64,000 nt of DNA, from NCBI GenBank assembly GCA_001189095.1, contig LFCK01000002.1, forward strand, positions 131,650 to 195,649, written 5' to 3'. Position numbers and translations under genes: made by a program. Below are positions 10,517 through 28,167 of this stretch, one piece after another. Under the pieces are notes generated by a model. The model did not search any database. It saw only the letters and a program-made list of their open reading frames with translations, and was not told where the DNA came from. The first letter of the stretch is position 1. Each line of letters begins with the position of its first letter. Source of the stretch: Parcubacteria bacterium C7867-001 (lineage in GTDB: Bacteria; Patescibacteriota; Minisyncoccia; Phycocordibacterales; Phycocordibacteraceae).

Positions 10517-11994
10517 GCGGAACGCTTTTCATCGCAAGCATCATTGGAGTAATTGGCGGCATCTTGTGCCGCTTTTTTAGTACGCCGGTTTGGTCGCTTG
10601 CAGCACTGTTCGGTGTCTTCGGTTTCGTATTTATTGTTGCGTATGCTGTTAAGCGTCGCGAGGCGTATGCTCTTCTTGCGTGTGCAACAGTAGTAGCGGC
10701 ACTTATTCTCACGCGTCTTCTTTTCATTCCTTCCGAACTCCCATCTTCGTTTGTGTCGCTCGTCGACACGAAGGTTTCTTTTGAGGGAACCATTGTCAGC
10801 GATCCTGATATTCGCGATTCAAACCAGCATGTCGTTATCGAGGTCGAGAAGGAGGGGGAGGCAACAAAAATTCTTGCATTCGCGCCGCTTTTCCCGAAGC
10901 TTGCATACGGGGAGCGTGTTGAGGTTTCTGGAAAGCTGAAATATCCAGAACCGTTCACAACTGATGGGGGACGAACGTTTGCGTATGACGAGTATCTCGC
11001 GAAAGACGGAATATTCTCTCTCATCTCATATGCAGAAGTTACGGTACTCGAAGAGCCGGAAGGGTTCTTTACGAACGCGAGAGGATTCTTGTATTCGATA
11101 AAGCATGCGTTCGTTGACGCGCTCATGCGCGCACTCCCGCAAGCGCAGGCTGCGCTCGCGTCCGGACTTATTGCAGGAGGGAAGCAAGGGCTTGGCGATG
11201 ATCTGCTTGAAGCGTTTACCATTGCGGGACTTCTGCCAATCATCGTCTTGTCGGGGTACAACGTGATGATTGTTGCGGATTGGATTCGTAAACTCTTCGG
11301 GTTCCTCCCAAAACGATTTTCGATACTTCTCTCCGCGCTCGCGGTTGCTGCGTTCGTGCTCGCGGCGGGCGGCGGGTCGTCCGCGGTGCGTGCGGGGTTC
11401 ATGGCAGGGCTCGCGCTTTTCGCTCGCGTAACGAATCGAACCTACGTTGCACTCCGCGCGCTCGCAGCGGTATTCATCGGCATGCTTTTCCTGAACCCGC
11501 TTCTTTTGCTCAACGACCCCGGATTCCAGTTTTCATTCGTAGCAACGCTCGGTCTCATTCTGGGAACGCCAATCGTCGAGCGGCGTTTGTTGTGGATCAA
11601 AAATGAATTCTTGCGCGAAATAGCAGCGACGACCGTCGCGGCACAAATCGCGGTTTTGCCGCTGCTTCTCTATCAAACAGGCAATCTCTCACTCGTTTCG
11701 CTTCTTGCGAATGTGCTCGTGCTTCCGTTCGTTCCGCTCACGATGCTGCTTTCGTTCCTTGCGGCACTCGTCAGTTTCGTCGTACCCAACATTGCGCCTC
11801 TTGCGGGTGCGCCCGCCTTTGTTTTCCTTTCCTACATTATTGGCGTGGGAGAGATAAGCGCGTCGCTCCCGTACGCCCACCTCATCGTGTATGCCTTTCC
11901 GTTCTGGATCGTCATCGGCCTCTACCTCCTCATCGCCTATATTTTTCTTGAGCTCTGCGGCGCAAAAGTTGCAGCCGTAAAGGGTACGGGGTAG
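10513..11994 (+). CDS. comEC: ComEC/Rec2-family DNA internalisation channel (short form, no C-terminal metallo-beta-lactamase domain)
   Basis: Polytopic membrane protein with competence-domain signature; ATGA overlap with the rnhA stop. Confidence 0.7.
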   Translation: MSGTLFIASIIGVIGGILCRFFSTPVWSLAALFGVFGFVFIVAYAVKRREAYALLACATVVAALILTRLLFIPSELPSSFVSLVDTKVSFEGTIVSDPDIRDSNQHVVIEVEKEGEATKILAFAPLFPKLAYGERVEVSGKLKYPEPFTTDGGRTFAYDEYLAKDGIFSLISYAEVTVLEEPEGFFTNARGFLYSIKHAFVDALMRALPQAQAALASGLIAGGKQGLGDDLLEAFTIAGLLPIIVLSGYNVMIVADWIRKLFGFLPKRFSILLSALAVAAFVLAAGGGSSAVRAGFMAGLALFARVTNRTYVALRALAAVFIGMLFLNPLLLLNDPGFQFSFVATLGLILGTPIVERRLLWIKNEFLREIAATTVAAQIAVLPLLLYQTGNLSLVSLLANVLVLPFVPLTMLLSFLAALVSFVVPNIAPLAGAPAFVFLSYIIGVGEISASLPYAHLIVYAFPFWIVIGLYLLIAYIFLELCGAKVAAVKGTG

Positions 11995-14061: not shown

Positions 14062-14697
14062 TTATTTCTTAGACGTTCTCGGTTTGTACGCGCTCGCGAG
14101 CGCGATAGCGTGCTCGAGTTCTTGGATGAGGATGCACTCCTGTTCCGCGTACGGAAGGTAGTAGCGCACCGTCTCCTCTATTTTCGCGCGACGCTTGTCT
14201 TCGGGTCGCCCATCGAGCGTCAGCAGATTGTGCAGACGGTCGGCGAGCTTGATGAACCAGAATTCGCGCGGCGCAAACCGGAAGCGCTCATGGTAGATAC
14301 GTTCCCGTTCGTGCTTGGTCCCGAAGGTTTCGTCCGGCATCGAGAGATACTCGAGCAGAAGCGCCACTTCGCGCCCGTATTCGCTCGAGATGCGTTCGAT
14401 GGTCCACTCCTTCTTATCTTCGACGCTGTCATGCATGAGAGCGGCGACGATGAGGTGATGGTCCTTCACACGCAGATACTCGATGAGGATGAGCGCGACG
14501 GCCCGCAAGTGCTCGAAATAGCGTTCGCCGCCGTCTCGAAACGTTTCGCGGAACGCGTCCTTCGCATCGTTATACGCCTTTTCGATCTCGCGGTAGCGAG
14601 GATCGTGGGGCGGCAAGAACTGCGCGATGCGCCGGAAGAACGTCTCTCGGTTCTGAGCCTCTTTCAAAAAGGGCATGTTGAGGGTGTGCCTAAGCAT
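14062..14697 (-). CDS. stand-alone HD-domain (p)ppGpp hydrolase (RelA/SpoT hydrolase-domain homologue, SAH/Mesh1-like)
   Basis: HLRAVALIL...LHDSVED and KLADRLHNL match the SpoT HD hydrolase signatures; no synthetase domain. Confidence 0.7.
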   Translation of the reverse strand: MLRHTLNMPFLKEAQNRETFFRRIAQFLPPHDPRYREIEKAYNDAKDAFRETFRDGGERYFEHLRAVALILIEYLRVKDHHLIVAALMHDSVEDKKEWTIERISSEYGREVALLLEYLSMPDETFGTKHERERIYHERFRFAPREFWFIKLADRLHNLLTLDGRPEDKRRAKIEETVRYYLPYAEQECILIQELEHAIALASAYKPRTSKK

Positions 14698-15409: not shown

Positions 15410-16063
15410 ATGGACTTCATCATGTTGAGCGATCTCGAAATCAGTATCTTCTCCATCGTTGTTCTTATCTTCTCCATCATCATCCACGAGGTGGCCCACG
15501 GCTACGCCGCGTATGCGCTTGGAGATCCAACTGCCAAGCTCTCCGGCAGGCTCACCATGAACCCGCTTCCGCACATCGACCCCATTGGCTCGGTGCTTCT
15601 TCCGGCGTTCTTCGTGCTTTCGCACTCCTCGATTCTCTTCGGTTGGGCAAAGCCGGTTCCGTACAATCCCTACAATCTGAAGAACCAGCGTTGGGGTGAA
15701 GCCATTGTGGGCGCTGCGGGTGTCGCAACGAACTTCGTTCTCGCTATAGTTTTTGTACTCATCGCGCGCTTCGCGTTCGGTATAGGAGAAAGTTTGTTTG
15801 GTCAGCTCGCTGCTATTGTCGCACTCACCAATCTTTTCCTTGGCGCGTTCAACCTCATTCCGTTCCCGCCGCTCGATGGCTACACCGTGCTTCGCGGCGT
15901 TCTCCCGTATCGCTATGCGCAGAGTTTCAGGAATTTCGAAGAGCGATTGAGCAGCGCTGGTATCTTCGGTCTTATCGCCTTTCTGTTTATCTTCTCGTAC
16001 ATACTCGCAGGACCCTTCTACAATTTCGTTTTCTGGGTGTTCTCGCTCATGCTCGGGCAGTAG
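15410..16063 (+). CDS. site-2 protease family zinc metalloprotease (peptidase M50)
   Basis: HEVAHG (HExxH) in a TM helix and NLIPFPPLDG motif. Confidence 0.85.
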   Translation: MDFIMLSDLEISIFSIVVLIFSIIIHEVAHGYAAYALGDPTAKLSGRLTMNPLPHIDPIGSVLLPAFFVLSHSSILFGWAKPVPYNPYNLKNQRWGEAIVGAAGVATNFVLAIVFVLIARFAFGIGESLFGQLAAIVALTNLFLGAFNLIPFPPLDGYTVLRGVLPYRYAQSFRNFEERLSSAGIFGLIAFLFIFSYILAGPFYNFVFWVFSLMLGQ

Positions 16064-16066
16064 TCT

Positions 16067-16693
16067 ATGGTGCAGATGAAAGAAATAACTGCTGCGGTCG
16101 TCGAGAAGACGGTCGAGCTTGGCCGCATGCTCTTGAATTTCGGTCTCGTAAAGCGCGTCACGCAGCACGAGGACGGCGTGACGTATGAAAGCGATTCCAC
16201 CCACACCGTGATGCTCGGTGTGATGGCCTGCGCCTTTGCGAAGGAGTACGTGCCGGACCTCGATCTCGGAAAAGTCGCGCAATTCGCGCTCGTGCACGAT
16301 CTCGTCGAAGTTTACGCAGGGGACACGAATACATTTGGAAAAATTGAGCACAACCCGGACAAAGAAGAACGCGAGCGCGAAGCGCTCGCGCGTATTAAAA
16401 CAGAGTTCGATAGCGTCTATCCGTGGCTCGGAGACACGATCACCGAATACGAACAGCTCGCATCTCGCGAAGCGCGCTACATAAAGGTGTTCGACAAAAT
16501 CCTTCCAAAAGTCACCCATCTTTTAAACGCCGGAAGTGCGGTGCGAGCACAGGGTCAGACCAAAGAAATGGCATCAGCTTTCATCGGGGCGCAGATAGAA
16601 AAACTCGCTCATTCCTACGCAACAGACCAGTCCGAAGCCATGACGCTCCTCAAGGAAATGCATGCTGAGTTCGAACGCAAGGTGTTTCCCTAG
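16067..16693 (+). CDS. HD-domain hydrolase, YfbR-like 5'-deoxynucleotidase family
   Basis: H...HD...E...GD motif arrangement (SDSTHTVMLG, LVHDLVEVYAGD). Confidence 0.7.
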   Translation: MVQMKEITAAVVEKTVELGRMLLNFGLVKRVTQHEDGVTYESDSTHTVMLGVMACAFAKEYVPDLDLGKVAQFALVHDLVEVYAGDTNTFGKIEHNPDKEEREREALARIKTEFDSVYPWLGDTITEYEQLASREARYIKVFDKILPKVTHLLNAGSAVRAQGQTKEMASAFIGAQIEKLAHSYATDQSEAMTLLKEMHAEFERKVFP

Positions 16694-16708
16694 GGAAAGG
16701 GTAGGGTA

Positions 16709-16737
16709 TTGACTTTTATACATATATATGGTATAGT
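16709..16737 (+). promoter_or_regulatory. near-consensus sigma70 promoter: TTGACT-17 nt-TATAGT
   Basis: Read directly from the sequence; lies about 45 nt upstream of the SD and TTG start of the next gene. Confidence 0.6.
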
Positions 16738-16784
16738 GGCACTTGGGTCCGCGCATTCGCGCGTTGTTCCCCAAGGAGAGTAAT

Positions 16785-17186
16785 TTGAAACAAGGTCTCT
16801 TCTCCGCAGTTGTTCTCTCGACGCTCATTCTTGCTGGCACGGCGCACGCCGGCCCCCGCTTCGGCGGCGGCGGTTTCCGTTCGGGCGGCTATCACTACAC
16901 CGCCCCGCGCCCCGCGCCCAAGCCCGCCGTCGCGCCGAAGCCGGCTCCCAAGGCTGCTCCGGTTGCGAAGACGACGACGAGCAAGCCTGGCGCGCCTTCG
17001 CGCTACGGTCGCAAGTTCGCCTACGGCGGTCAGGACTATCAGTCGGTGTTCAGCAACAACACCCTGCTGTGGATCTGGATCCTGAGCGCGAACGGCTCGC
17101 ACTCGTCGAAGATCGACTGCACCCACCCCGAACGCCTCACGGCTCGTGAGAAGGAAGCTTGTCGCCGCGCGGTGGCAAGTTACTAA
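16785..17186 (+). CDS. secreted Pro/Ala-rich protein (signal peptide ...LAGTAHA|G, AP-KP repeats, two C-terminal Cys); TTG start inferred
   Basis: SD AAGGAGAG then TTG; the ATG at 16743 would precede the predicted transcription start; GC-rich codon usage. Confidence 0.5.
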   Translation: MKQGLFSAVVLSTLILAGTAHAGPRFGGGGFRSGGYHYTAPRPAPKPAVAPKPAPKAAPVAKTTTSKPGAPSRYGRKFAYGGQDYQSVFSNNTLLWIWILSANGSHSSKIDCTHPERLTAREKEACRRAVASY

Positions 17187-17214
17187 CGTTCGGGCTCTAG
17201 TCGGGTAACCGACT

Positions 17215-17262
17215 AACCCCCGCCCTGCGCGTATGAAAGCGTGCAGGGCGGATTGTTTTATA
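17215..17262 (+). terminator. intrinsic terminator (CCGCCCTGCGCG-loop-CGTGCAGGGCGG ATTGTTTTA)
   Basis: 12-bp GC stem plus T-rich tail. Confidence 0.55.
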
Positions 17263-17279
17263 CAAAGGAATCAATAATC

Positions 17280-17308
17280 TTGACACTTGTATTTTAGTGT
17301 GCATAAAT
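17280..17308 (+). promoter_or_regulatory. sigma70-like promoter: TTGACA-17 nt-ATAAAT
   Basis: Consensus -35 and a good -10 upstream of the LemA gene. Confidence 0.55.
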
Positions 17309-17342
17309 ACCAAAAGGACTGGGGCATGGTGCCCCGTGTTCC

Positions 17343-17966
17343 TTGGAGAACATACCAATGAAGAACATCGGTTTGTGGATTGTGCTGGGCGTCGTGGCCA
17401 TCTTTGGTCTCGGCAGCTGCAGCGCCTACAACGGTTTCGTCAACAAGAGCACGGCGATCGACAAAGCCGTCGCGGACGTCCAAGTCGACGTGCAGCGGCA
17501 GGCGAACCTGATCCCGAGCCTCGTGAAGGTTGCGAAGGGCTACTCTGACTTCGAACGCGAAACGTTCAAAGAGGTCACGATGGCTCGCGCCGCCGCTTCG
17601 GCGCCGGTGATCAACGTCGATCCGTCGAAGATCGCCAACGATCCGAAGCTGCAGGAGCAGCTCTTCGCTGCACAGCAGCAGATGTCCGGCTCGCTCGGGC
17701 GCCTGTTGGTGACGATGGAGAAGTATCCCGACTTGAAGTCGATTGCTCTCTATCAGCAAGTCAGCGACGAAATGGCCGGCAGCCAGAACCGCATCTCGCA
17801 TTCGCGCAAGGTGTGGAACGCGGTGACGGCCGACTACAACGCGTCCATCAAACGCATTCCGGGCAGCTTCATCGCCAGCATCGGCGGCTTCAAGCACAAG
17901 GACTTCTACACCGCGACGGTGCAGGGTCCGGCCGCTGAAATGCCGGAGATTTCCTTCGAAAAATAA
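17343..17966 (+). CDS. LemA family protein (N-terminal TM anchor); start may be the 17358 Met
   Basis: Single N-terminal TM helix and LemA-like alpha-helical body; conserved pairing with the downstream TPM-domain gene. Confidence 0.8.
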   Translation: MENIPMKNIGLWIVLGVVAIFGLGSCSAYNGFVNKSTAIDKAVADVQVDVQRQANLIPSLVKVAKGYSDFERETFKEVTMARAAASAPVINVDPSKIANDPKLQEQLFAAQQQMSGSLGRLLVTMEKYPDLKSIALYQQVSDEMAGSQNRISHSRKVWNAVTADYNASIKRIPGSFIASIGGFKHKDFYTATVQGPAAEMPEISFEK

Positions 17967-17978
17967 CCAAGGAGATCT

Positions 17979-18899
17979 TTGATGAGAAAGATACTCGCCG
18001 CGATTGCGGCGGCGGGCGCGCTTTTTAGCGCGACCGCCGTTGCGGCGCCGACGTTCCCCGCGCAAACGGGGTATCTCGTTGACGAGCTCAAGCTCGTTCC
18101 CGCTGCGGACCGACCTGCCCTCGAAGCTAAAATGAAAGCTGCCGAGGAACAGTTGCCGGAACACCCGCAGTTCAGGATTGTTACCGTAACGGAAAAGCAG
18201 CTCGACGGGCTCAACCCCGCTGAGTATGCGACCGAGCTCGGGAACAAGTGGAAAGTTGGCCAGAAGGGCGTCGACAACGGCGTCGTTATTCTGGTCTCAC
18301 CGAAACCGAACAATCGTTTCAACATCTTCATCGCGCCGGCGGGCGGTATCCAAGGCATCTTGAACGATGCCAAGGTCGCCCGCATCACGCGCGAAAGCAT
18401 GGCGCCGCACCTTAAGCCGGGAGACCGGCACTGGGCAGCGGCGTTCAATGCGGGCATCGACGCCCTTCGAAAAGAAATTGAGAAGGGCGCGGCGCCGGAA
18501 GACGCGAAGATGAAGGAAGGGCCTCCACCGATTCCGCAGTCAGCCCTCTGGGCTCTCGGCATCGGTGCGCTCATCACGTTCATCTTCTGTTTCTTCACCG
18601 TGACGGGCGCGAGCCTTTCCGGTGGTGCAACAGGTGGTGTGTCGGCGTTTCTCCTCGGCGTATCGTCGATTGAAGCGCTCGCCATTCCGGCCGGCATTGG
18701 TTTCGTCATTGCTCTCGTTGTCGCTGCGATATTCAAAGCGATACGCGACGGCGGTGGCGCTGGTGAGTTCCTTGATATCGTCTCCTCGACAGGAGGTGGC
18801 TTCCTCGGTGGTGGTTCATCATCCGACAGTGGAGGCGGCTTCTCTGGCAGCGGAGGTGGTGGAGGGTTCGATGGCGGCGGCGGAGGTTCCGACGTCTGA
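17979..18899 (+). CDS. TPM-domain (YgcG-like) protein with C-terminal TM segment and Gly-rich tail
   Basis: Signal peptide, TPM/Psb32-like domain, TM helices and GGGFxGGG repeats; classic LemA partner. Confidence 0.75.
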   Translation: MMRKILAAIAAAGALFSATAVAAPTFPAQTGYLVDELKLVPAADRPALEAKMKAAEEQLPEHPQFRIVTVTEKQLDGLNPAEYATELGNKWKVGQKGVDNGVVILVSPKPNNRFNIFIAPAGGIQGILNDAKVARITRESMAPHLKPGDRHWAAAFNAGIDALRKEIEKGAAPEDAKMKEGPPPIPQSALWALGIGALITFIFCFFTVTGASLSGGATGGVSAFLLGVSSIEALAIPAGIGFVIALVVAAIFKAIRDGGGAGEFLDIVSSTGGGFLGGGSSSDSGGGFSGSGGGGGFDGGGGGSDV

Positions 18900-18918
18900 T
18901 CCATCGACACAAAGTGTG

Positions 18919-18950
18919 CTAAGGCCCGGGATATTACCCGGGCCTTTTCA
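18919..18950 (+). terminator. intrinsic terminator (AAGGCCCGGG-ATATTA-CCCGGGCCTT TTCATTT)
   Basis: Perfect 10-bp stem. Confidence 0.55.
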
Positions 18951-18951
18951 T

Positions 18952-18980
18952 TTGCATTCCTCGAGTGCTTCCTATATATT
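18952..18980 (+). promoter_or_regulatory. candidate rpsL promoter: TTGCAT-17 nt-TATATT
   Basis: Directly follows the upstream terminator; about 35 nt before rpsL. Confidence 0.45.
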
Positions 18981-19016
18981 GCTCACATCCCGCAGGGCGG
19001 GATTTTCATTACCTAC

Positions 19017-19427
19017 ATGGCCACCATCAATCAGCTCTCAAAGAAGAGCCGCAAGAACAAAACGAGGAAATCAAAGACCCTCGCTCTTGGTCGTGGCTTC
19101 AATGCGCTCAAGAACCGCCCTACCTACTACGCAGCTCCGTTCAAGCGCGGCGTCTGCACGAAAGTGACCACCAAGACCCCTCGCAAGCCGAACTCGGCTA
19201 TTCGTAAGATCGCCCGCGTTCGCCTCACGAACGGCATGGAAGTCACCGCCTACATTCCGGGTGAAGGACACAACCTTCAGGAGCACTCAGTGGTCATGCT
19301 TCGTGGTGGCCGCGTGAAGGACATTGGCGTTCAGTACACCATCGTCCGCGGTCGCCTCGACACCGCAGGCATCGAGAAGCGCCGCCGTGGCCGCTCGCGC
19401 TATGGCGCTAAGAAGCCAAAGGCATAA
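19017..19427 (+). CDS. rpsL: 30S ribosomal protein S12
   Basis: PTINQL-type N-terminus, PKKPNSA and RGGRVKD motifs. Confidence 0.93.
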
Positions 19428-19439
19428 TTTTTCTAGACC

Positions 19440-19907
19440 ATGCGACGCCCAATAAAAAACAAGCACCCACGCCAGCCCGATCAGAAATTCAAGTCGGAAG
19501 CTATTTCGCGCTTCATCAACACCGTAATGCTCGACGGCAAGAAGGACACTGCACGCAAGGTCGTCTATGACGCACTTGATCTCCTTAAGAAGGAAGATGG
19601 CGTCGATCCGATCGAAGTCTTCGAGACCGCGATTCGCAACGTCTCGCCGGTGATGGAAGTCCGCTCCCGCCGTGTCGGTGGCGCTAACTATCAGGTTCCG
19701 CGCGAAGTTCCGCAGCAGCGCCGCACCAGCCTCGCGTATCGCTGGCTCATCAATGCTGCTCGCGCAAAGAAGGGAAAGCCGATGGCCGAGAAGCTCGCAA
19801 ACGAAATCCTCATGGCAGCAAAGAACGAAGGGGAAGCAATCAAGAAGAAGGACGACATGCACCGCATGGCAGACGCCAACAAGGCATTCGCTCACTTCGC
19901 TTGGTAA
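19440..19907 (+). CDS. rpsG: 30S ribosomal protein S7
   Basis: Conserved uS7 sequence; immediately downstream of rpsL. Confidence 0.93.
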   Translation: MRRPIKNKHPRQPDQKFKSEAISRFINTVMLDGKKDTARKVVYDALDLLKKEDGVDPIEVFETAIRNVSPVMEVRSRRVGGANYQVPREVPQQRRTSLAYRWLINAARAKKGKPMAEKLANEILMAAKNEGEAIKKKDDMHRMADANKAFAHFAW

Positions 19908-19924
19908 CCGGTTTTATAAAGCAA

Positions 19925-19958
19925 AGGAAAACGCGCCCCGTATGGGGCGCGTTTGCGT
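19925..19958. terminator. bidirectional terminator (AAACGCGCCCC-GTAT-GGGGCGCGTTT)
   Basis: Lies between rpsG (+) and a convergent minus-strand gene, where fusA would normally follow. Confidence 0.6.
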
Positions 19959-20249
19959 TCAGGACGTTGTTCTGCTGATTCGCAATAGGTTGGGAATATT
20001 CATTGTCTCAAATTCGTCGAGCACTTCTTGACCGGGGATATCATAGGACTCCCAAAAGTTCTGTTCCTCGTCGCGCAGAGAGAAAGTCAGAAGGCATGAG
20101 TACCATGGACCGCGCGGACGTGGATCCGCGTCGTTCTTCTCCATGAATCCTTGATTTTGAATAGCGCCAAAGAATTGCTTCGAGAGCGCTTTGTCTTCTG
20201 GGCGAAGTCCGAGCTCTCGGAATCGAGAAGCGAATTTACTTTCAGCCAT
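19959..20249 (-). CDS. hypothetical protein (96 aa)
   Basis: SD AAAGGAG 7 nt upstream of ATG. Confidence 0.45.
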   Translation of the reverse strand: MAESKFASRFRELGLRPEDKALSKQFFGAIQNQGFMEKNDADPRPRGPWYSCLLTFSLRDEEQNFWESYDIPGQEVLDEFETMNIPNLLRISRTTS

Positions 20250-20386
20250 GACTGGCTCCTTTCATCTGCCGCGGACTGTAGCATTCACAAGCATAAAAGA
20301 AAAACGCACTCATACGGCGCCGCTTTTCGTTTCGGGAAATCCGCGTATACTCGCGGGCAGGCTTTTGTTCCTAGGAGAGTTACCTC

Positions 20387-21157
20387 ATGCAGGTAGTCAA
20401 AGCATCAACCAAACTCTATCGAGACCGCGACCTTACCGCGCCTGTCGAGACGGAACTCCTCATCGGGGAAATTTTCGATGAGGACTACGTCGACTTCGGC
20501 TGGGTCCACGGAAAAGCGCGCCTTGATGGTTACCAAGGATACGTTCGTCTTCTCGATGTGCATCCCGGCGAGCGGACGACGACGCACCGCGTAAGCGCCG
20601 TGCGTACCATCGGATACGCTGCTCCGGATCTTAAATCGTCGGCCATCGAGTGGTTGTCCATCAACTCGCTCGGATGCATCGAGGAAGAAGTGAACGGCTT
20701 CACGCGGTTCAATGGTATCTGGGTACCGACGCAGCATATCGCGGCGCTCGATAAACCAACGCCGAACTATGTCGAAGTCGCTCGAGGATTCATCGGGACT
20801 CCGTATCTTTGGGGCGGGCGCGACGCCAATCACGGCGTCGATTGTTCCGGTCTCGTGCAGCAGGCATTGCTTGCGACCGGTCGCGTCGTTCCGCGAGACA
20901 GCGGACCGCAATCCGAAAGAATCGGCGTTCTCATCAATCCCGAAGGAGGCGACGGTATCGGCACGGGTGACTTCGTGTTCTGGAAGGGGCACGTCGGAAT
21001 CGTGACCGGTCTCGATGGTCGCGGCAATGACAGCCTTATTCATGCAACCGCAGATCATATGCGGGTCGTGGAAGAACCGCTCGAGCTTGTCATCAAGCGT
21101 CGAAGGGCTCAGGGCGGGGGAGAATCGCTCTGCTACCGGCGGATACTTCCGAAATGA
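20387..21157 (+). CDS. NlpC/P60 (C40) peptidase with N-terminal SH3b-like domain (YkfC/DPP6-like cell-wall endopeptidase)
   Basis: GTPYLWGG...GVDCSGLVQ (catalytic Cys), GDFVFW..GHVGIV (His) and IHA motifs. Confidence 0.85.
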   Translation: MQVVKASTKLYRDRDLTAPVETELLIGEIFDEDYVDFGWVHGKARLDGYQGYVRLLDVHPGERTTTHRVSAVRTIGYAAPDLKSSAIEWLSINSLGCIEEEVNGFTRFNGIWVPTQHIAALDKPTPNYVEVARGFIGTPYLWGGRDANHGVDCSGLVQQALLATGRVVPRDSGPQSERIGVLINPEGGDGIGTGDFVFWKGHVGIVTGLDGRGNDSLIHATADHMRVVEEPLELVIKRRRAQGGGESLCYRRILPK

Positions 21158-21194
21158 AAAACGGCGCCCCACAGGGGCGCCGTTATCTTTTTTG
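21157..21194. terminator. bidirectional terminator (AACGGCGCCCC-ACAG-GGGCGCCGTT ATCTTTTTT)
   Basis: GC stem plus T-run. Confidence 0.6.
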
Positions 21195-21203
21195 TGTGGC
21201 GTC

Positions 21204-21485
21204 TTACGCGAAGGCGATTCGCGTATAGCCGTTTGCGGAGAGATCATGACTCCCAGGTTTGAAGAGCCACTGCACGCCGTTGTAGGCGAACGTGACGATC
21301 CAGGGAATCGAGAAGAAGCAGGGTGCGCCTGGCAATCCGTTCAGGACTGTGAACACTTTGTTCTGTTCGGGCAGCGCTGCTTTTTCTTCTTTGGCTCGCT
21401 TGCTCATATGGACGCGCGGTGGCGCCTCCGTGAGTGGCTTGAAGCCCATCTCCTCGAGATTTCCAAAGTTCTTGAGTGCGGTCAT
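21204..21485 (-). CDS. hypothetical protein (93 aa)
   Basis: Weak SD GGAAGGGGA; sits between the NlpC/P60 gene and fusA. Confidence 0.35.
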   Translation of the reverse strand: MTALKNFGNLEEMGFKPLTEAPPRVHMSKRAKEEKAALPEQNKVFTVLNGLPGAPCFFSIPWIVTFAYNGVQWLFKPGSHDLSANGYTRIAFA

Positions 21486-21635
21486 TTCTATCCCCTTCCG
21501 CTAGTACCAATATGAACATTAACGTATTTTTAGCCACTTGTCCAGTTTCATGTCTCCAGCCTTTGCTTTTTGGGGGCTTTTTCCGTATCTTGTAGCTAAC
21601 GGCCCAAGGGGCTTTTTAATTTACTTACCTTATAT

Positions 21636-23783
21636 ATGAATCGAGATTATCCGCTAGATAAGGTTCGCAACTTCGGCATCGTCGCTCACGTGGACGCTGG
21701 TAAAACCACCACGTCTGAACGCGTGCTCTTCTACACTGGCTCCCAGCACAAAATCGGGGAAGTGCACGAGGGTGAGACCACGACCGACTGGATGGAGCAG
21801 GAGCGCGAGCGCGGCATCACCATCACGGCGGCTGCCATAACCTGCTTCTGGACCCGCACGTCCGAGAAAGACAAGAAGGACACGGCAAAGAAGTTCCGCT
21901 TCAATGTCATCGACACACCGGGACACATCGACTTCACCGCAGAAGTGAAGCGCTCCATGCGCGTGCTCGACGGCGCTATCGTCGTTTTCGACGGTGTCGC
22001 TGGCGTCGAACCGCAGTCGGAAACCAACTGGCGTTACGCTGACGAAGCGAACGTGCCGCGTGTCTGCTTCATCAACAAGCTCGATCGTACCGGTGCATCG
22101 TTCGAAGACTCCTACAAATCGATTCTCGACCGCCTCTCGAAGAAGGCCGTGCGCGCGCAGATCCCTATGGGTGCGGAAGGTGACTTCAAGGGTGTCGTCG
22201 ACCTCCTTTCCCGCAAGTCCTTCACCTTTGAAGGAAACATGGGTGAGAACGTCATCGAAGGCGAGGTTCCGGAAGAATTCAAAGCCGATATGGAGAAGTA
22301 TCGTGCTGAACTCGTGGAGCGCATCGTCTCCCAGGACGAAGCTGCAATGAATGCCTACCTCGAAGGAAACGAGCCGTCGCTCGAAGAGCTCAAAGCGCTT
22401 CTTCGCAAAGCGGTTATCGCAAACGAAATCTTTCCGGTCTACACCGGCTCGGCTCTTAAGAACAAGGGTGTGCAGCTCGTGCTCGACGCCGTCGTCGACT
22501 ACCTCCCAAGTCCGCTCGATCTTCCGCCGGTTACCGGCATCAATCCGAAGACCGATCAGCCAGTCGAACGTCAGGTTTCTGATGACGAGCCGTTCACCGC
22601 GCTCGCCTTCAAGCTCCAGACGGACCCGTTCGTCGGTGCACTGACCTTCTTCCGCGTATACGCAGGAACGGTCTCTGCCGGTTCCTATATTTACAACGCG
22701 AACACGGGCGCAAAGGAGCGCATTGGTCGCATCGTTCGTCTTCAGGCAGACAAGCGCGAAGAAGTGGAGAAAGTCTTCACCGGAGAAATCGCTGCATTCG
22801 TCGGCATGAAGGAAACGAAGACCTCGCATACGCTCTGCGACGAAGCGAATCCGATCATCCTCGAAGAAATTAAATTCCCTGAGCCAGTGGTGTCGCTTCG
22901 CATCGAGCCAGCTACCAAGGCCGATCAGGAGAAAATGGGTATCGCTATCCGCAAGCTCGCAGATGAAGACCCGACCTTCAAGGTGTCTTCGGACGAAGAG
23001 ACTGCCGAGACCATCATCTCGGGCATGGGTGAGCTTCACCTTGAAATTCTCGTTGATCGCATGAAGCGCGAGTTCAACGTCGTCGCAAATGTCGGTAAAC
23101 CACAGGTCGCCTACCGCGAAACCGTCATGGGTACTGCAGATGTCGAGAACAAGTACATCAAGCAGACGGGAGGTAAGGGTCAGTACGGCCACGTGAAGAT
23201 TAAACTCAAGCACCTCGAGCCAATTGATCCAGAAGCTAAGATCGCGAAGAACGTTACGCGCGAAGACCACTTCGAGTTCGTGAACAACATTAAGGGAGGT
23301 GTTATTCCGCAGGAATACATTCCAGCAGTGGAAAAGGGTATCCGCGAATCCCTCACCCGCGGTATTCTCGCTGGCTACCCAATAGTGGATGTGTCGGTGG
23401 ATCTCTACGACGGTTCGTACCACGATGTGGACTCGTCTGAAATCGCCTTCAAGATCGCTGCATCGCAGGCCTTCCAAGAAGCTGCCCAGAAAGCAAAGCC
23501 GGTCATTCTCGAACCGATCATGAAAGTCGAAGTCGTCGTTCCTGAGCAGTTCATGGGTGATATCACCGGTTCGCTCTCAGGAAAGCGCGGCGCTATCGAA
23601 GGCATGGAGGATCGCGGTATGAACAAGGCAATCAATGCCAAGGTGCCGCTCTCCGAAATGTTCGGGTACACCACGAGTCTTCGCTCGATGACCGAAGGTC
23701 GCGGTTCCATGACTATGGAATTCGATCACTACGAGGTCGTGCCAGCTAACGTAGCTAACGATATTATTGCTTCTCGTAAATAA
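21636..23783 (+). CDS. fusA: translation elongation factor G
   Basis: G1 AHVDAGKTT, DTPGHIDF, NKLD and all five EF-G domains. Confidence 0.95.
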   Translation: MNRDYPLDKVRNFGIVAHVDAGKTTTSERVLFYTGSQHKIGEVHEGETTTDWMEQERERGITITAAAITCFWTRTSEKDKKDTAKKFRFNVIDTPGHIDFTAEVKRSMRVLDGAIVVFDGVAGVEPQSETNWRYADEANVPRVCFINKLDRTGASFEDSYKSILDRLSKKAVRAQIPMGAEGDFKGVVDLLSRKSFTFEGNMGENVIEGEVPEEFKADMEKYRAELVERIVSQDEAAMNAYLEGNEPSLEELKALLRKAVIANEIFPVYTGSALKNKGVQLVLDAVVDYLPSPLDLPPVTGINPKTDQPVERQVSDDEPFTALAFKLQTDPFVGALTFFRVYAGTVSAGSYIYNANTGAKERIGRIVRLQADKREEVEKVFTGEIAAFVGMKETKTSHTLCDEANPIILEEIKFPEPVVSLRIEPATKADQEKMGIAIRKLADEDPTFKVSSDEETAETIISGMGELHLEILVDRMKREFNVVANVGKPQVAYRETVMGTADVENKYIKQTGGKGQYGHVKIKLKHLEPIDPEAKIAKNVTREDHFEFVNNIKGGVIPQEYIPAVEKGIRESLTRGILAGYPIVDVSVDLYDGSYHDVDSSEIAFKIAASQAFQEAAQKAKPVILEPIMKVEVVVPEQFMGDITGSLSGKRGAIEGMEDRGMNKAINAKVPLSEMFGYTTSLRSMTEGRGSMTMEFDHYEVVPANVANDIIASRK

Positions 23784-23795
23784 TTAAATCTCCCA

Positions 23796-23836
23796 AACAC
23801 AAAACCCGCGGCCAAAGGCCGCGGGTTTTGTGTTAT
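23796..23836 (+). terminator. intrinsic terminator (AAAACCCGCGGCC-AAA-GGCCGCGGGTTTTGTGTT)
   Basis: 13-bp stem plus T-rich tail directly after fusA. Confidence 0.65.
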
Positions 23837-23847
23837 TCTGCGAAATT

Positions 23848-24852
23848 ATGAAGGGACCCCTGTTGGTCATCGCTCTCGCACTCCTCATCGGTGTCGTTGC
23901 GGGTGCCGGATATCTCTACGTTACGTCGCAAAAAGCACCTGCCGGTCCGAATCTGATTGAGAATACGAACTCCTCTACGTCTTCGTCGACTAACTCGGTC
24001 GTTACTGAAAAAGAAAAACAGGGCACGTTGCTTATGAGTTACGGGAAAACACTTTTGCCCTCCATAGAAACTACGCTGCCAGTAGCACAAGGTTTGTGTG
24101 GTCTTGTCTACGGCAACTTCTGTGCATGGAATGGATCAGCTATTAAAGAGAAAACTTTTTATCTCTACGGAAGCAAGGATAAGCAGCCGAGTATCACCGT
24201 CTCACAGCCGTACCCAAAGACCGTTGTTCAGTACGGTCCCTCGGTGCCCATTCGCTTTACCGACGCCGGACCGACAGGTCCTCATCGCGTCTATCTGATT
24301 CATCGGAACCTCCTCGGGGAAGTGAATGAAGTCCATGAGGCACATATCGTGAGTGAAAGCGGAACAAGTGAGCTCACGCTCGTCTGGGACGGGAACGAGT
24401 CCTTGCTTAACGAACGCGGGTCGCTGGTCGTCCAGAAACTTCCCAAAGGGCACTACGAACTTGTTGTCGTGAATACCGCTACTGGAGTTGAGGGCGGCGT
24501 TTCCTCGTGGATACACACCATCGACTCTGCAAGCGACGTCGACAAGGTAACCGGAAGTTACATAAAACCGTATGCGCTCAACACGCCGCTCGTTAATTCT
24601 TACTGGGACGGTCGGGGCATTTTCTTTGATGGTGGGGGAGACGAAGACAACATCGGTCTCACGTTTAAGCGAAGCGAAATCGCTGTCTTCCGAGGCATTG
24701 ATGTGCCGGAGAAGGGTCAGCTAAACACGCTTGTATTCTTTCGTCGTCCCGACAACGTCGTTATCGTCACGGCCAATGTCGAAACTTTCCAATTTGCAGA
24801 CCAAAAACTGACCGTTGCGCAGCTGCTCCAGCAGATTGCCTCTGGAAAATAA
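23848..24852 (+). CDS. hypothetical exported or membrane-anchored protein (N-terminal TM/signal anchor, about 335 aa)
   Basis: Hydrophobic N-terminus MKGPLLVIALALLIGVVAGAG; no recognisable domain. Confidence 0.5.
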   Translation: MKGPLLVIALALLIGVVAGAGYLYVTSQKAPAGPNLIENTNSSTSSSTNSVVTEKEKQGTLLMSYGKTLLPSIETTLPVAQGLCGLVYGNFCAWNGSAIKEKTFYLYGSKDKQPSITVSQPYPKTVVQYGPSVPIRFTDAGPTGPHRVYLIHRNLLGEVNEVHEAHIVSESGTSELTLVWDGNESLLNERGSLVVQKLPKGHYELVVVNTATGVEGGVSSWIHTIDSASDVDKVTGSYIKPYALNTPLVNSYWDGRGIFFDGGGDEDNIGLTFKRSEIAVFRGIDVPEKGQLNTLVFFRRPDNVVIVTANVETFQFADQKLTVAQLLQQIASGK

Positions 24853-24854
24853 AA

Positions 24855-24885
24855 TATCCCCGCACACCTTTGGTGTGCGGGGCAG
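24855..24885. terminator. bidirectional terminator (CCCCGCACACC-TTTG-GTGTGCGGGG)
   Basis: Perfect hairpin between convergent ORFs. Confidence 0.5.
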
Positions 24886-24888
24886 TCC

Positions 24889-25050
24889 TTAAATAAGGTA
24901 GAACCAGCGGAGCAGAAAGAGCCCGATGACAAAGGTGCCGATCGCGCCGTAGAGTGCGTGGCGCAAAAGCTCCATACACTCTTCGCGGGTGAACCCTTTG
25001 CGTGGCTGCATCGGGAGCGGTTCGCCTCGCCGGTATTCCATGGGTCGCAT
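24889..25050 (-). CDS. 53-aa small membrane protein (MRPMEYRRGEPLPMQPRKGFTREECMELLRHALYGAIGTFVIGLFLLRWFYLI)
   Basis: Perfect SD GAGGAGGTG 5 nt upstream of ATG; C-terminal TM helix; absent from the ORF track because under 60 aa. Confidence 0.4.
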   Translation of the reverse strand: MRPMEYRRGEPLPMQPRKGFTREECMELLRHALYGAIGTFVIGLFLLRWFYLI

Positions 25051-25164
25051 GAGACACCTCCTCTCTCCTTAGTGAAATAAATTGTGACCTATCTGTCAAT
25101 TTCCCCTCGCTTTTTTCCCGAGGAGGAGTACGCTTACTACTAGTTGGGAAAGAAAGGGCTTCGC

Positions 25165-25629
25165 ATGACAGTCATGGAATCCGGAGACCTTCTCGAGGTC
25201 TTTGAACGTTATCTGGAAGCTTCCGACATTGAGCACGACCGTCTCTCCGACGATTCGCTCATTACGCCCGCGCCCGGTTTCCTTGTCCAAGATGCCATGC
25301 GCATCGTGCAGGGAGACGAGGACGAGTGCCTCATCCTCGGCATACAAATTTCGCCGTCCGACTTCGGATATGCGGAATTGAGTGCGCTCCTTCAAAGGCT
25401 CAATTCTTGCCTCACTGGCGAAGTTGAGGCGGGAGAGGAGGGTATTTTCTGGGCTATGCCGGTGGCACCGCCCCAAAATCAGGAAGCGTATGAGGAGATT
25501 CTCGAGCTCGCAAGCCGCGACCTCGTCCTCATCGAAATGTTCATGCTGCTCTATGATGCGTGGGGCGATCGCTACACGTTTGAAGAGCACCTCCTGAAGT
25601 GCATGCAGCCGGTCATCGGCTACTGCTAA
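25165..25629 (+). CDS. acidic hypothetical protein (about 154 aa)
   Basis: SD-like GAAAGG upstream of ATG; highly acidic composition; hairpin terminator downstream. Confidence 0.4.
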   Translation: MTVMESGDLLEVFERYLEASDIEHDRLSDDSLITPAPGFLVQDAMRIVQGDEDECLILGIQISPSDFGYAELSALLQRLNSCLTGEVEAGEEGIFWAMPVAPPQNQEAYEEILELASRDLVLIEMFMLLYDAWGDRYTFEEHLLKCMQPVIGYC

Positions 25630-25871
25630 AAATCTACCGCGCCCCGTAGGGGCGCGGTACCGTGTTCATACCTATTGACCTTTTATACGTGCGCCTGTAC
25701 GTTATAGCTAACGCGGATTGGCGCTCTTTTTATTCGACTCCACGGCATTCTGCCGGCAGGGGTGTGGTAAAAGGCGTTTCGCGGGTGGGCACAACCAGCA
25801 AGCGCCTTTTATCTTTTAGATAGTAAGGAGCATTCGCTTATCAATTTAGGTTATCGATAACTTACAAACGT

Positions 25872-27068: not shown

Positions 27069-27090
27069 CTAATAGCCTCACGATCCTCGT

Positions 27091-27450
27091 ATGGCAGCCA
27101 CTAAGACCTCGAAGAAAGCTACGGCCGCAGCAGTAGCTGCGGGCGAGAGCAAGCTTCGCATCCGGGTCCGTGCCTACGAGCACAAGATTCTCGATCTCTC
27201 GGTGAAGCAGATCATGGATACGGCAGCGCGTTTCGACGCGAAAGTCGTAGGCCCAGTTCCGCTTCCGACGGAGATCAAGCGCTGGACCGTGAACCGCTCG
27301 ACCTTCGTCCATAAAGACGCGCGCGAGCAGTTCGAGATGCGCATCCACAAGCGACTCATCGACATCCTGAATCCGAATGCGAAAGTCATCGAGGCTCTCA
27401 CGAACCTCAGTCTTCCGTCCGGCGTCACGATTGACGTGAAGATGGTCTAG
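27091..27450 (+). CDS. rpsJ: 30S ribosomal protein S10 (with Ala/Lys-rich N-terminal extension)
   Basis: Conserved uS10 core (RIRVRAYEHKILD...); immediately downstream of tuf. Confidence 0.9.
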   Translation: MAATKTSKKATAAAVAAGESKLRIRVRAYEHKILDLSVKQIMDTAARFDAKVVGPVPLPTEIKRWTVNRSTFVHKDAREQFEMRIHKRLIDILNPNAKVIEALTNLSLPSGVTIDVKMV

Positions 27451-27469
27451 GCAGAATTGCCGAAGACAG

Positions 27470-27505
27470 CACAAAACCGCCCCTTGAGGGGCGGTTTTGC
27501 GTTTG
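27470..27505 (+). terminator. intrinsic terminator (AAAACCGCCCC-TTGA-GGGGCGGTTTT)
   Basis: Sits where rplC would normally follow rpsJ. Confidence 0.6.
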
Positions 27506-27547
27506 ATTCGTCTTAATGATTAAGTGCAAGGAGAAAAGGAGAAAGAG

Positions 27548-27760: not shown

Positions 27761-27769
27761 CCAAGTCCA

Positions 27770-28166: not shown

Positions 28167-28167
28167 C

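Follow-up and report, generated by a model that had tools for sequence, protein, structure and literature searches.

A divergent LemA-TPM gene pair and an orphan secreted-protein gene in a GC-rich, variable slot beside rpsL of a Parcubacteria genome

Genes and signals between the HD_3 gene and rpsL

The window, a 64-kb stretch of DNA from Parcubacteria bacterium C7867-001, carries three adjacent genes between an HD_3 phosphohydrolase gene and rpsL (Table 1). They encode a small Pro/Ala-rich protein with a predicted signal peptide, a LemA protein and a YgcG-like TPM protein. Their layout supports a prediction of two separately transcribed units for envelope proteins, each with strong expression signals: unit 1, the small gene, and unit 2, lemA-tpm, in which tpm starts 15 nt past the lemA stop on the same strand and has its own AAGGAGA ribosome-binding site (RBS). 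No paralogs of the small protein, LemA or TPM were found elsewhere in the 64-kb window.

Table 1. Coordinates of genes and predicted signals at the locus (window positions).
Feature	Position	Strand	Basis or description
HD_3 phosphohydrolase gene, left flank	16067-16693	+	Pfam HD_3, 1.9e-22
Promoter of small secreted protein gene, sigma-70-like	16709-16737	+	TTGACT, 17-nt spacer, TGn-TATAGT; 10/12 with extended -10
Small secreted protein gene, 133 aa	16785-17186	+	Open reading frame and RBS; NCBI call with the same coordinates
Intrinsic terminator, unit 1	17220-17251	+	13-bp stem, 10 G-C pairs, then ATTGTTTTAT
Promoter-like site of lemA-tpm	17280-17308	+	Perfect TTGACA, 17-nt spacer, TGc-ATAAAT (or 16 nt then CATAAA); 10/12
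lemA, 202 aa	17358-17966	+	Pfam PF04011
tpm (YgcG-like), 305 aa	17982-18899	+	Pfam PF04536
Intrinsic terminator, lemA-tpm	18921-18946	+	10-bp stem, 8 G-C pairs, then TTCATTTGCA; z -4.33
rpsL promoter-like site	18951-18980		TTTGCA-18-TATATT
rpsL (S12), right flank	19017-19427	+	Pfam; opens conserved S12-S7-…-EF-G block

The unit 1 promoter lies in a 91-bp AT-rich gap (GC 0.46) behind the HD_3 gene. Across both strands of the 64 kb, ten sites scored at least 10/12 (5.7 ± 2.5 expected), and two of the ten were the promoters of units 1 and 2, both correctly placed just upstream of their respective units. A sequence-only reading of this DNA had called both promoters unusually canonical; their rank and placement stood, but the description was overstated for the second, whose -10 hexamer matches at only 4/6 positions. 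Because this hexamer lacks A2/T6 in either register, the lemA-tpm site was absent from a stricter promoter scan. The hairpin terminators named in the same reading were confirmed at both unit ends (z -6.9 for unit 1 and -4.3 for lemA-tpm), with 17187-17265 folding at -44.2 kcal/mol (z -6.85). An Rfam scan of 16000-19600 at E <= 1 found no leader or riboswitch, returning two chance-level matches far below gathering scores.

The small gene starts at a TTG at 16785, 4 nt beyond AAGGAGAG. An in-frame TTG upstream, at 16743, was considered as an alternative start and rejected, as it has no RBS and comes 6 nt past the -10 hexamer. The product is basic and has a Sec-type signal peptide (residues 1-22, ending …AGTAHA before GP), followed by a RFGGGGFRSGGY motif, an AP/KP-rich disordered linker and a C-terminal domain of about 60 aa with four strands, a helix and two conserved Cys. 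The ORF reading, with which the NCBI coordinates agree, thus upheld the proposal of a TTG-initiated signal-peptide protein with AP/KP repeats. No Pfam or NCBIfam family matched it. In an AlphaFold2 model, residues 1-73 had pLDDT < 50, while C-terminal blocks from residue 71 averaged 65-84, and Foldseek comparison of the model with the PDB gave no match at E < 0.4. Given the moderate confidence in the C-terminal 60 residues and the lack of a structural match, no fold was assigned.

Homologs of the small protein were found in one cluster among 1.84 billion representatives (P0206, E 4.7e-10), and an exhaustive HMMER search returned one true homolog and three low-complexity Pro-rich matches. A metagenome scan with the patterns FAYGG[QR][DQ]Y and GGG[FY]R[SG]GGY matched 600 stretches, none of which encoded a relative of the small protein. 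The P0206 gene is itself monocistronic: a TGn-TATAAT promoter precedes it, its TTG start follows AAGGAGG, and a hairpin terminator closes the unit. The gene adjoins an RNase R gene whose 90% cluster bears the name 'Patescibacteria group bacterium', and its locus shows no LemA/TPM linkage. As judged by sequence similarity, the small protein is one of an apparent two-member family, the other member being encoded on a contig of Patescibacteria-like character, and the small protein has no functional tie to LemA/TPM.

LemA matched PF04011 over the whole profile (positions 1-149 of 149) at 133.2 bits (cut-off 26.2; E 8.7e-39) and the LemA structure 2ETD at 3e-26. Its N-terminal anchor, MKNIGLWIVLGVVAIFGLGSC followed by SAYNG, has a lipobox-like LGSC directly before the conserved YNG motif, and the N-termini of 68 LemA homologs likewise carry a lipobox or signal-anchor right before the conserved YN motif. 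We take MKNIGLWIVLGVVAIFGLGSC to fit the PROSITE-type lipobox rule, making the protein a candidate for lipidation. TPM matched PF04536 at 82.3 bits (cut-off 22.1; E 3.7e-23; profile positions 3-124 of 125) and the PDB entries 7TBR (5.6e-17), BA41 5ANP (4.4e-08) and 2KW7 (1e-05). From its translation, it comprises a signal peptide (…ATAVA before AP), a TPM domain at residues 34-164 and a Gly-rich C-terminal tail, with one to three hydrophobic segments at about residues 187-255. These matches bear out the earlier identification of a LemA and YgcG-like TPM membrane pair.

Sources of the GC peak

With a GC content of 0.602, 16785-18899 ranked top among all 2115-bp intervals of the 64 kb (mean 0.549, sd 0.015; +3.5 sd), and every interval at or above this value (0.09%) overlapped it, in line with the GC enrichment noted earlier. 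The codon preferences noted with it were partly misjudged. CTG, GTG and GCC had been read as dominant, but the three genes mainly used CTC for Leu (57%; CTG 18%, CTT 14%), GTC for Val (40%; GTG 30%) and GCG for Ala (46%; GCC 27%); the dominance of GGC (52%) was correctly seen.

Against a background of the 64-kb window, which is rich in ribosomal genes (74 background genes) and stands in for the whole genome here, lemA had the highest GC3 of 77 genes (0.833, z +3.0), and its GC excess derived entirely from GC3. In the small gene the excess was split about evenly between codon position 2 (Ala/Gly/Pro/Ser) and GC3 (0.776); lemA and the small gene ranked first and second in the window for GC3. For tpm, GC3 was ordinary (0.670, z +0.5) and synonymous usage host-like; about 80% of its excess came from codon positions 1 and 2, with Gly and Ala making up 31% of residues. 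For the small gene and tpm, 55-80% of the GC excess was due to positions 1 and 2. On the GC3/G3 axis lemA was the most extreme gene, the small gene moderate and tpm ordinary within the 74-gene background, and the GC3/G3-rich style of lemA recurred in four other, unrelated genes of the window. The distinct codon usage claimed for the region was thus most marked in lemA, but neither extended to tpm nor was exclusive to these genes. At four-fold sites, lemA was G3-rich (0.44) and almost free of A3 (0.01), whereas G3 was avoided (0.12-0.26) in the r-protein and elongation-factor genes that were tabulated; the lemA spectrum is hence not a translational-selection pattern.

Under a host model, synonymous-codon likelihood was above expectation in all three genes (z +2.2, +2.1 and +0.6), the same direction as r-proteins and EF-Tu/EF-G. 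Because scores above expectation would result from origin in a higher-GC donor as well as from strong adaptation of a native gene, this test does not discriminate between the two, and RSCU principal component analysis, third-base spectra and dinucleotide signatures were therefore added. On PC1, the expression axis, lemA and the small gene leaned towards the ribosomal genes. No foreign dinucleotide signature was found (delta* 0.046 versus 0.052 ± 0.017 for all intervals; z -0.3), with 60% of intervals deviating in relative abundance at least as much as 16785-18899. The intergenic DNA flanking the region has host-like low GC. Collectively, residual or atypical GC3 (lemA, unit 1) accounts for one part of the high GC, and Ala/Gly/Pro-rich protein composition (tpm, unit 1) for another.

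The variable slot and the origin of lemA-tpm

In this uncultured Parcubacteria (Paceibacteria-type) genome, the slot between the conserved L28-M50 genes and rpsL is a variable one. It was compared with six loci from three relative lineages, with rpsL 90-93%, S7 88-90%, EF-G 88%, EF-Tu 93-95% and M50 68% identical to the window proteins. The relatives retained the order L28-M50…S12-S7-EF-G, as seen in L084, which has L28-M50 and S12-S7-EF-G with other genes in between. Their M50-rpsL slot held unrelated genes, and LemA, TPM, HD_3 and the small protein were all absent from their 20-kb neighbourhoods; the presence/absence check suggested earlier thus found lemA-tpm missing from the same slot in every sampled relative. 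HD_3, which has an ordinary composition (GC3 0.638, z 0.16), gave no tblastn match in the relatives' loci L080-L085. The non-core genes across this ribosomal cluster all show equal lineage specificity, and absence from relatives therefore does not set this region apart. Around the region only short, chance-level repeats were found where insertion scars were sought, the sole tRNA of the window lies at 59.4 kb, and no mobility-gene domains occurred among the scanned adjacent genes on either side. The native dinucleotide signature, the ordinary synonymous usage of tpm and the lack of repeats, tRNA or integrase run against transfer.

Among 5.8 billion proteins, the closest LemA was at most 44% and the closest TPM at most 35% identical, while core proteins had relatives at 88-95%. 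Thousands of sampled Paceibacteria-type genomes yielded no LemA ortholog above 44%, although S7 reached 90% there. The best matches from the suggested closest-relative search lay on contigs of 69-70% GC with non-Patescibacteria gene content (Rho, hemE, aroE, coaE, MutS, FtsQ/FtsA), and named TPM matches came from Rhodomicrobium, Ancylobacter, Casimicrobiaceae and a betaproteobacterial YgcG. We take the two loci with the closest homologs, L087 and L090, to be alphaproteobacteria-like, judging by gene order and the named TPM matches only. In a neighbour-joining tree of 68 LemA sequences (100 bootstraps), the window LemA sat on a long branch with a best sister support of 30%, and no donor can therefore be named. 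Given the unrelated genes in the relatives' slot, the low identities and the best matches in non-Patescibacteria high-GC genomes, a lineage-specific gain of lemA-tpm, either old or from an unsampled donor, is likely. There is no sign of recent transfer at the region.

On balance, we consider it reasonably probable that the region holds two independent, strongly signalled envelope units in a variable slot: lemA-tpm, an envelope helper pair gained horizontally but not recently, and unit 1, a separate secreted protein of a tiny family, with the GC peak partly due to codons and partly to protein composition. The gain would most likely have followed the split from the sampled relatives, and the donor may have had a higher GC. 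Since the nearest of these relatives are distant (M50 68%), ancestral presence with repeated loss could also account for the distribution. It is possible, if rather unlikely, that all three genes are native, highly expressed old residents that underwent no horizontal transfer. Their GC peak would then combine Ala/Gly/Pro-rich proteins with an exaggeration of the genome's own preference for GC-ending codons, and their absence in relatives would reflect loss and regional plasticity. The above-expectation codon likelihoods shared with r-proteins and EF-Tu/EF-G, the continued use of CTC as main Leu codon and the PC1 placement of LemA and the small protein all fit this account. So do the ordinary GC3 of tpm and the contribution of codon positions 1 and 2 to the GC excess of the small gene and tpm, the typical dinucleotide signature, the absence of insertion scars, the strong promoters and the variation among relatives in every non-core gene of the cluster, and LemA is an abundant membrane protein elsewhere (PMC3931704). 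It is harder to reconcile with the G3-rich, A3-poor spectrum of lemA, which departs from that of r-protein and elongation-factor genes and points to a bias not linked to expression, with the lack of closer orthologs despite well-conserved S7 relatives, and with best homologs outside Patescibacteria.

The sequence-only reading had proposed a horizontally acquired envelope module. Lineage-specific acquisition fits lemA-tpm, but the region lacks uniform foreign codons, insertion scars and an identifiable donor, and it is not one module, as the small protein's homolog stands alone beside a Patescibacteria-like RNase R gene. A single recent three-gene island from a higher-GC donor, with donor codon usage retained, is accordingly very improbable, even though the three contiguous genes form the GC maximum, LemA and the small protein have the top two GC3 values, and all three genes are absent in relatives. 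Besides the separate location of the small protein's only homolog, a terminator and a promoter lie between the units, tpm has host-like GC3, the dinucleotide signature is native, mobility features are absent, and the nearest homologs, at only 35-44% identity, reveal no recent donor. We also considered an assembly chimera or contamination, in which the contig would have taken in a GC-rich piece from another organism, since the TPM signal-peptide region is interrupted in two public assemblies: at window 18025/18026 the NCBI scaffold carries a 151-N gap flanked by a mismatch on either side, and a Logan contig ends at 18015. However, the left junction (HD_3-small gene-LemA) is unbroken in the Logan contig at 100% identity, the right junction (TPM-rpsL and onward) is unbroken in the NCBI scaffold, and a 1.5-kb contig of a third sample spans small gene-LemA-TPM across the gap. 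With continuity backed by three independent assemblies, the break falling between two genes that are partners everywhere else, and flanking intergenic regions of host-like low GC, the probability of a chimera is close to negligible.

Proposed roles and comparison with known LemA and TPM systems

LemA would be anchored through its N-terminal lipobox or signal-anchor, and the TPM protein would be exported through a cleavable signal peptide and retained by its C-terminal membrane segments. From these predicted topologies, both folded domains should face the outer side of the cytoplasmic membrane. By analogy, the pair most likely helps to maintain membrane and envelope, assisting membrane-associated complexes either in a scaffold/chaperone-like way or as a phosphatase-type factor, with expression predicted to be high-level or induced by envelope stress. 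To our knowledge, no biochemical function has been established for any bacterial LemA-TPM pair, and mechanism is argued by analogy only. In Treponema denticola, one of 16 major membrane proteins belongs to the LemA family (PMC3931704), and lemA and a TPM gene were both up-regulated in a membrane-stressed sppA mutant of Flavobacterium columnare (PMC13236525). TPM domains have been proposed as chaperone-like partners in membrane-complex assembly, with a generic phosphatase as the competing idea (PMC11237479).

Unit 1 is predicted to be monocistronic and to yield a small basic secreted protein with a disordered Pro/Ala linker and a Cys-pair C-terminal domain. A bolder proposal, which we consider unlikely, is that this protein founds an undescribed family confined to Patescibacteria-type genomes. 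It would then be a strongly expressed protein of the surface, or one spanning the wall, that combines a Gly/Arg/aromatic motif near its N-terminus, a Pro/Ala spacer and a disulfide-stabilised four-strand and helix domain without structural match. It might serve cell-surface contacts of these small, probably host-attached bacteria, and lemA-tpm would have been captured alongside from a high-GC proteobacterial neighbour or host. If abundant at the surface, the protein would offer a handle on the cell surface of these uncultured bacteria.

The GC spike beside rpsL is best described as a divergent copy of a ubiquitous, uncharacterised LemA-TPM pair next to an unrelated orphan secreted protein, rather than a new system, and it has little importance beyond annotation. 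It suggests that reduced genomes of this type still acquire envelope-maintenance genes and, on predicted expression, express them strongly. In this clade, the ribosomal-protein supercluster accommodates many lineage-specific insertions and hence acts as an accessory-gene hotspot.

Within the LemA family (PF04011), including Thermotoga maritima 2ETD and Listeria monocytogenes LemA, the window protein shares the full-length profile match, the N-terminal anchor followed by a helical domain from YNG, and a TPM gene immediately downstream. It differs in being very divergent (at most 44% identity to anything sampled), in adjoining rpsL in a Parcubacteria genome and in having the window's highest GC3. 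It is also homologous over its whole length to MamQ, a LemA-family magnetosome protein (NCBIfam NF040966; E 1.7e-26). The link between MamQ and formation of the magnetosome membrane hints that the fold may help to shape membranes. Identity with MamQ itself was rejected, as the score was 93 bits against an equivalog cut-off of 250 and no magnetosome genes were present.

The TPM protein resembles YgcG-like proteins (PF04536; 7TBR, BA41 5ANP and PG0361 2KW7; matches named 'YgcG family protein') in its signal peptide, TPM domain, membrane segment(s) and Gly-rich tail, an architecture shared by the closest homologs in L087 and L090, although it is at most 35% identical to any homolog and probably has more than one hydrophobic segment. 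In contrast to Bacillus subtilis YdjH-type TPM proteins, which are associated with PspA (PMC11237479), it has no PspA, band-7 or ZnR partner in the window, and its partner here is LemA. The proteobacterial-type LemA-TPM-TPM operons of L087 and L090, which hold the best LemA and best TPM matches, share the order and orientation of the first two genes. Their third gene, for a second TPM-like membrane protein of about 225 aa, is missing here, where a terminator and then rpsL follow, and no second TPM was found in the 64-kb window. A TPM gene downstream of LemA is the norm: tblastn gave 48 TPM matches across 77 LemA-bearing loci, and all 40 of those listed lay downstream of LemA. In this respect, lemA-tpm is an ordinary member of the very widespread pair of LemA and YgcG-like TPM.

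Gene order and transcription units of the islet

The islet lies directly before rpsL, in a window with 77 usable genes under a self-trained codon model (Table). ORF reading, together with profile and structure matches, confirmed the anatomy that a sequence-only reading had assigned to it. The small gene starts at a TTG codon with AAGGAGAG 4 nt before it, and NCBI gives identical coordinates. Translation bears out the secreted AP/KP-repeat protein described in that reading: a signal peptide (…AGTAHA/GP) precedes a Gly/Arg/aromatic motif and a stretch rich in AP/KP, and the C-terminal region contains two Cys. LemA scored 133 bits against PF04011 and matched the solved structure 2ETD, while the TPM protein scored 82 bits against PF04536, matched structures 7TBR, 5ANP, and 2KW7, and carries hydrophobic segments and a Gly-rich tail at its C-terminal end, as expected for the proposed LemA and YgcG-like TPM pair.

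Coordinates of features in the window
Feature	Position	Strand	Remark
HD_4 (SpoT-like) hydrolase	14062-14697	-	LemA-like GC3/G3-rich codon style
L28	14790-15074	-
M50 peptidase	15410-16063
HD_3 hydrolase	16067-16693
Promoter, unit 1 (small gene)	16709-16737		TTGACT-17-TATAGT, extended -10
Small secreted protein (133-aa ORF)	16785-17186
Hairpin, unit 1	17220-17251		T-rich tract; z -6.9
Promoter, unit 2 (lemA-tpm operon)	17280		TTGACA, then TGc-ATAAAT
LemA	17358-17966
TPM-domain protein	17982-18899
Hairpin, unit 2	18921-18946		T-rich tract; z -4.3
rpsL	19017-19427
rpsG	19440-19907
NlpC/P60 gene	20387-21157		interrupts supercluster; S7/EF-G slot
fusA	21636-23783
Interrupting gene	23830-24852
Interrupting gene	25144-25629
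Interrupting gene	27524-28542
Interrupting gene	31457-33021
Secreted 141-aa protein	37496-37921	+	interrupts supercluster; LemA-like GC3/G3-rich codon style
427-aa membrane protein	52701-53984	+	LemA-like GC3/G3-rich codon style
Perfect sigma-70 consensus	56607-56636	-	TTGACA-18-TATAAT
123-aa membrane protein	58963-59334	-	LemA-like GC3/G3-rich codon style
tRNA-Ile, anticodon TAT (UAU)	59393-59467	-	ARAGORN

Both transcription units had been credited with canonical promoters and hairpin terminators. Only 10 sites in the 64 kb, on both strands, matched at least 10 of 12 promoter positions when the listing rule of a stricter scan was lifted (Markov-1 random expectation, 5.7±2.5); two of these are the islet promoters, each in a short AT-rich gap just 5' of its gene. 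The second is less canonical than claimed, as its -10 hexamer matches at only 4/6 positions, and it is absent from the stricter scan. A hairpin with a T-rich tract closes each unit, as had been described. No Rfam family matched in the islet region. Elsewhere, the sole perfect (12/12) sigma-70 consensus of the window lies in surroundings where the codon-based model called no confident gene.

Window 7358-27815 is 99.99% identical to NCBI GCA_002396685.1 contig DGYL01000006.1, and NCBI assigns the proteins to 'Parcubacteria bacterium C7867-001'. In the matching NCBI scaffold, 151 Ns interrupt the sequence at window 18025/18026 (10669-10819 of scaffold locus L001), flanked by one mismatch on either side; a Logan contig, assembled independently, stops at 18015. 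We rejected an assembly chimera because each islet junction is unbroken in one of the two, the left in the Logan contig and the right in the NCBI scaffold, and a 1.5-kb contig from a third sample covers the small gene, lemA, and tpm. At 18015-18026, the TPM signal-peptide coding region runs through a GC-rich, nearly palindromic stretch (GCGGCGGCGGGCGCGC…GCGACCGCCGTTGCGGCGCC), and the break there is likely a sequencing or assembly dropout, which leaves the NCBI TPM gene model truncated at 255 aa.

Base composition and codon usage

The claim that the islet is more GC-rich held, as the GC of 0.602 at 16785-18899 marks the highest region for 2115-bp windows across the 64 kb (mean 0.549, sd 0.015). 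The cause of this excess differs among the three genes. In the small gene (GC 0.654, rank 1/77; GC3 0.776), half comes from codon position 2 of an Ala/Gly/Pro/Ser-rich protein and half from GC3, while in lemA (GC 0.593; GC3 0.833, rank 1/77, z +3.0) it comes wholly from GC3. For tpm (GC 0.609), GC3 is ordinary (0.670, z +0.5) and about 80% of the excess falls in positions 1 and 2, with Gly and Ala making up 31% of residues. A large share of the islet GC signal is amino-acid composition.

The islet had also been described as distinct in codon usage and dominated by CTG, GTG, GCC, and GGC. With the three genes pooled, this was true only of GGC (52%); CTC (57%, CTG 18%), GTC (40%, GTG 30%), and GCG (46%, GCC 27%) lead for Leu, Val, and Ala. 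In a principal component analysis of codon usage, axis 1 set the ribosomal protein and elongation factor genes apart, and axis 2 followed GC3/G3. On this second axis, lemA lay furthest out among the genes of the 64-kb window (3.40); the small gene was moderate (1.87) and tpm unremarkable (0.73). G-ending codons account for 44% of four-fold codons in lemA (A-ending, 1%) versus 12-26% in the tabulated ribosomal protein and elongation factor genes, and thus the lemA bias is not expression-linked. Four unrelated genes (the HD_4 hydrolase and the 141-, 427-, and 123-aa proteins) share this A3-poor style, with axis 2 scores of 1.8-2.8, and may form an accessory class with a common compositional history; the first two have no Pfam-assignable counterpart in the relatives' loci sampled.

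The base-composition-normalised dinucleotide signature of the islet was typical (delta* 0.046 vs 0.052±0.017). All three genes scored above expectation in synonymous-codon likelihood, a result expected equally of strongly adapted native genes and of genes from a higher-GC donor. Separately, ARAGORN placed a tRNA-Ile with anticodon TAT in the window. Such a tRNA is an uncommon way of reading ATA, which accounts for 12% of Ile codons across the genes of the window.

Relatives and probable origin of the islet

Thousands of S7 homologs were found, the closest (88-90% identity) named Paceibacterota, Pacebacteria, or Patescibacteria. Six loci from three lineages of these relatives keep the order S12-S7-(variable)-EF-G-(variable)-EF-Tu-S10, and in one of the six, L084, L28-M50 is conserved upstream as well. 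What lies between M50 and rpsL differs wholly in content: L084 carries an MFS transporter, a GDSL lipase, a pilin-like gene, PG_binding, and CAP, while loci L080-L083 carry type-IV-secretion-like genes and a lipase upstream of rpsL. When window proteins from 11-31 kb were searched by tblastn against the relatives' loci, only core translation genes and M50 (68%) matched; the loci lack all the interspersed genes, including those for HD_3, the small protein, LemA, TPM, and NlpC/P60. The islet is therefore lineage-specific, as is every other non-core gene in the cluster.

The str/S10/spc supercluster (19907-38700) is itself repeatedly broken up by lineage-specific genes, examples of which are listed in the Table. 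Besides the NlpC/P60 gene, these slots hold two ORFs without a Pfam match (EF-G/EF-Tu), three small ORFs (S10/L3), two opposite-strand genes, RyR-like and DUF3298 (L2/S19), and, farther along, the secreted 141-aa protein. Since relatives carry other genes in the same slots, the slots look like accessory-gene hotspots in the clade. About 4-8 kb 5' of rpsL, L080-L083 have a PrgI/TraC-like/TraG-type ATPase cluster directly before the GDSL-lipase gene, further support for a slot that collects accessory, possibly mobile DNA.

Apart from an identical protein, the best LemA matches among 5.8 billion proteins shared 39-44% identity. In one-genome-per-species contigs, the best came from Cyclobacteriaceae (42-43%), Elusimicrobia, other Bacteroidota, and Cloacimonadota; Patescibacteria matches there were weak (Saccharibacteria, 34%, and two partial), one partial match being interpreted as a diverged LemA-like gene that has no TPM gene as partner. 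The top match (P0005, 44%) lies on a 69% GC contig with a LemA-TPM-TPM operon and genes for Rho, hemE, aroE, coaE, a dnaQ-like protein, and sulfate-ABC components. The best TPM match (35%) is again in a LemA-TPM-TPM operon, on a contig of 70% GC that also encodes MutS, Ddl, FtsQ, and FtsA; the named TPM matches are Rhodomicrobium, Ancylobacter, Casimicrobiaceae, and a betaproteobacterial 'YgcG family protein'. In a neighbour-joining tree of 68 sequences, the window LemA sits on a long branch whose best sister group has 30% bootstrap, so the tree points to no donor.

The small protein matched no Pfam or NCBIfam family, and an exhaustive HMMER search of 1.84 billion representatives returned one real homolog, P0206 (128 aa, E 4.7e-10), which shares its architecture; 48 positions are invariant, among them RFGGG, FAYGG, IDC, and both Cys. 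The P0206 gene stands alone on a 2.7-kb contig (GC 0.50), with AAGGAGG before a TTG start, a TTTACT-16-TGc-TATAAT promoter, and a hairpin terminator. The adjoining RNase R belongs to a 90%-identity cluster that includes a protein named 'Patescibacteria group bacterium', and neither LemA nor TPM adjoins P0206 on this contig. No other members turned up when JGI metagenome contigs were scanned by pattern. AlphaFold2 modelled residues 1-73 at pLDDT below 50 and a C-terminal domain of four strands and a helix (10-residue blocks from residue 71 onward average 65-84), for which Foldseek found no PDB match at E <0.4. The lone occurrence of P0206 on a Patescibacteria-like contig, without LemA or TPM, marks the small gene as a rare orphan outside the LemA-TPM module.

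These results bear on the earlier proposal that the islet is a single horizontally acquired module. In its favour, lemA-tpm is absent from relatives and its closest homologs lie outside Patescibacteria. However, the small gene appears, from its sole relative on a Patescibacteria-like contig, to be unrelated to lemA-tpm, the dinucleotide signature is typical, and searches of the islet flanks found no direct repeats, tRNA, or mobility genes. The sequence observations were thus largely right, but the single-module interpretation only partly so. The lemA-tpm pair was probably gained by this lineage, through an acquisition that is old or from an unsampled donor.

Proposed role of the LemA-TPM pair

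LemA has a lipobox-like N-terminal anchor (…FGLGSC/SAYNG), with a lipobox or signal-anchor at the same position in homologs, and the TPM protein has a cleavable signal peptide. Their folded domains would therefore sit at the outer face of the cytoplasmic membrane, and they may act together. The 16 major membrane proteins of Treponema denticola include one of the LemA family (PMC3931704), and in Flavobacterium columnare an sppA mutant under membrane stress induces lemA together with a TPM gene (PMC13236525). TPM domains have been argued to be chaperone-like in membrane-complex assembly, with a generic phosphatase as the competing view (PMC11237479). Together with homology to MamQ, these predictions and reports suggest a role in envelope and membrane maintenance, with strong or stress-induced expression.

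The window LemA is homologous to MamQ, yet scores under the MamQ equivalog cut-off. Searching 77 LemA-bearing loci by tblastn gave 48 TPM matches, with TPM downstream of LemA in 40/40 among the matches listed, so the pair is the norm. Unlike the proteobacterial LemA-TPM-TPM triad, the window lacks the third gene. Its lemA-tpm adds a new and divergent example of a gene pair that is already well known.
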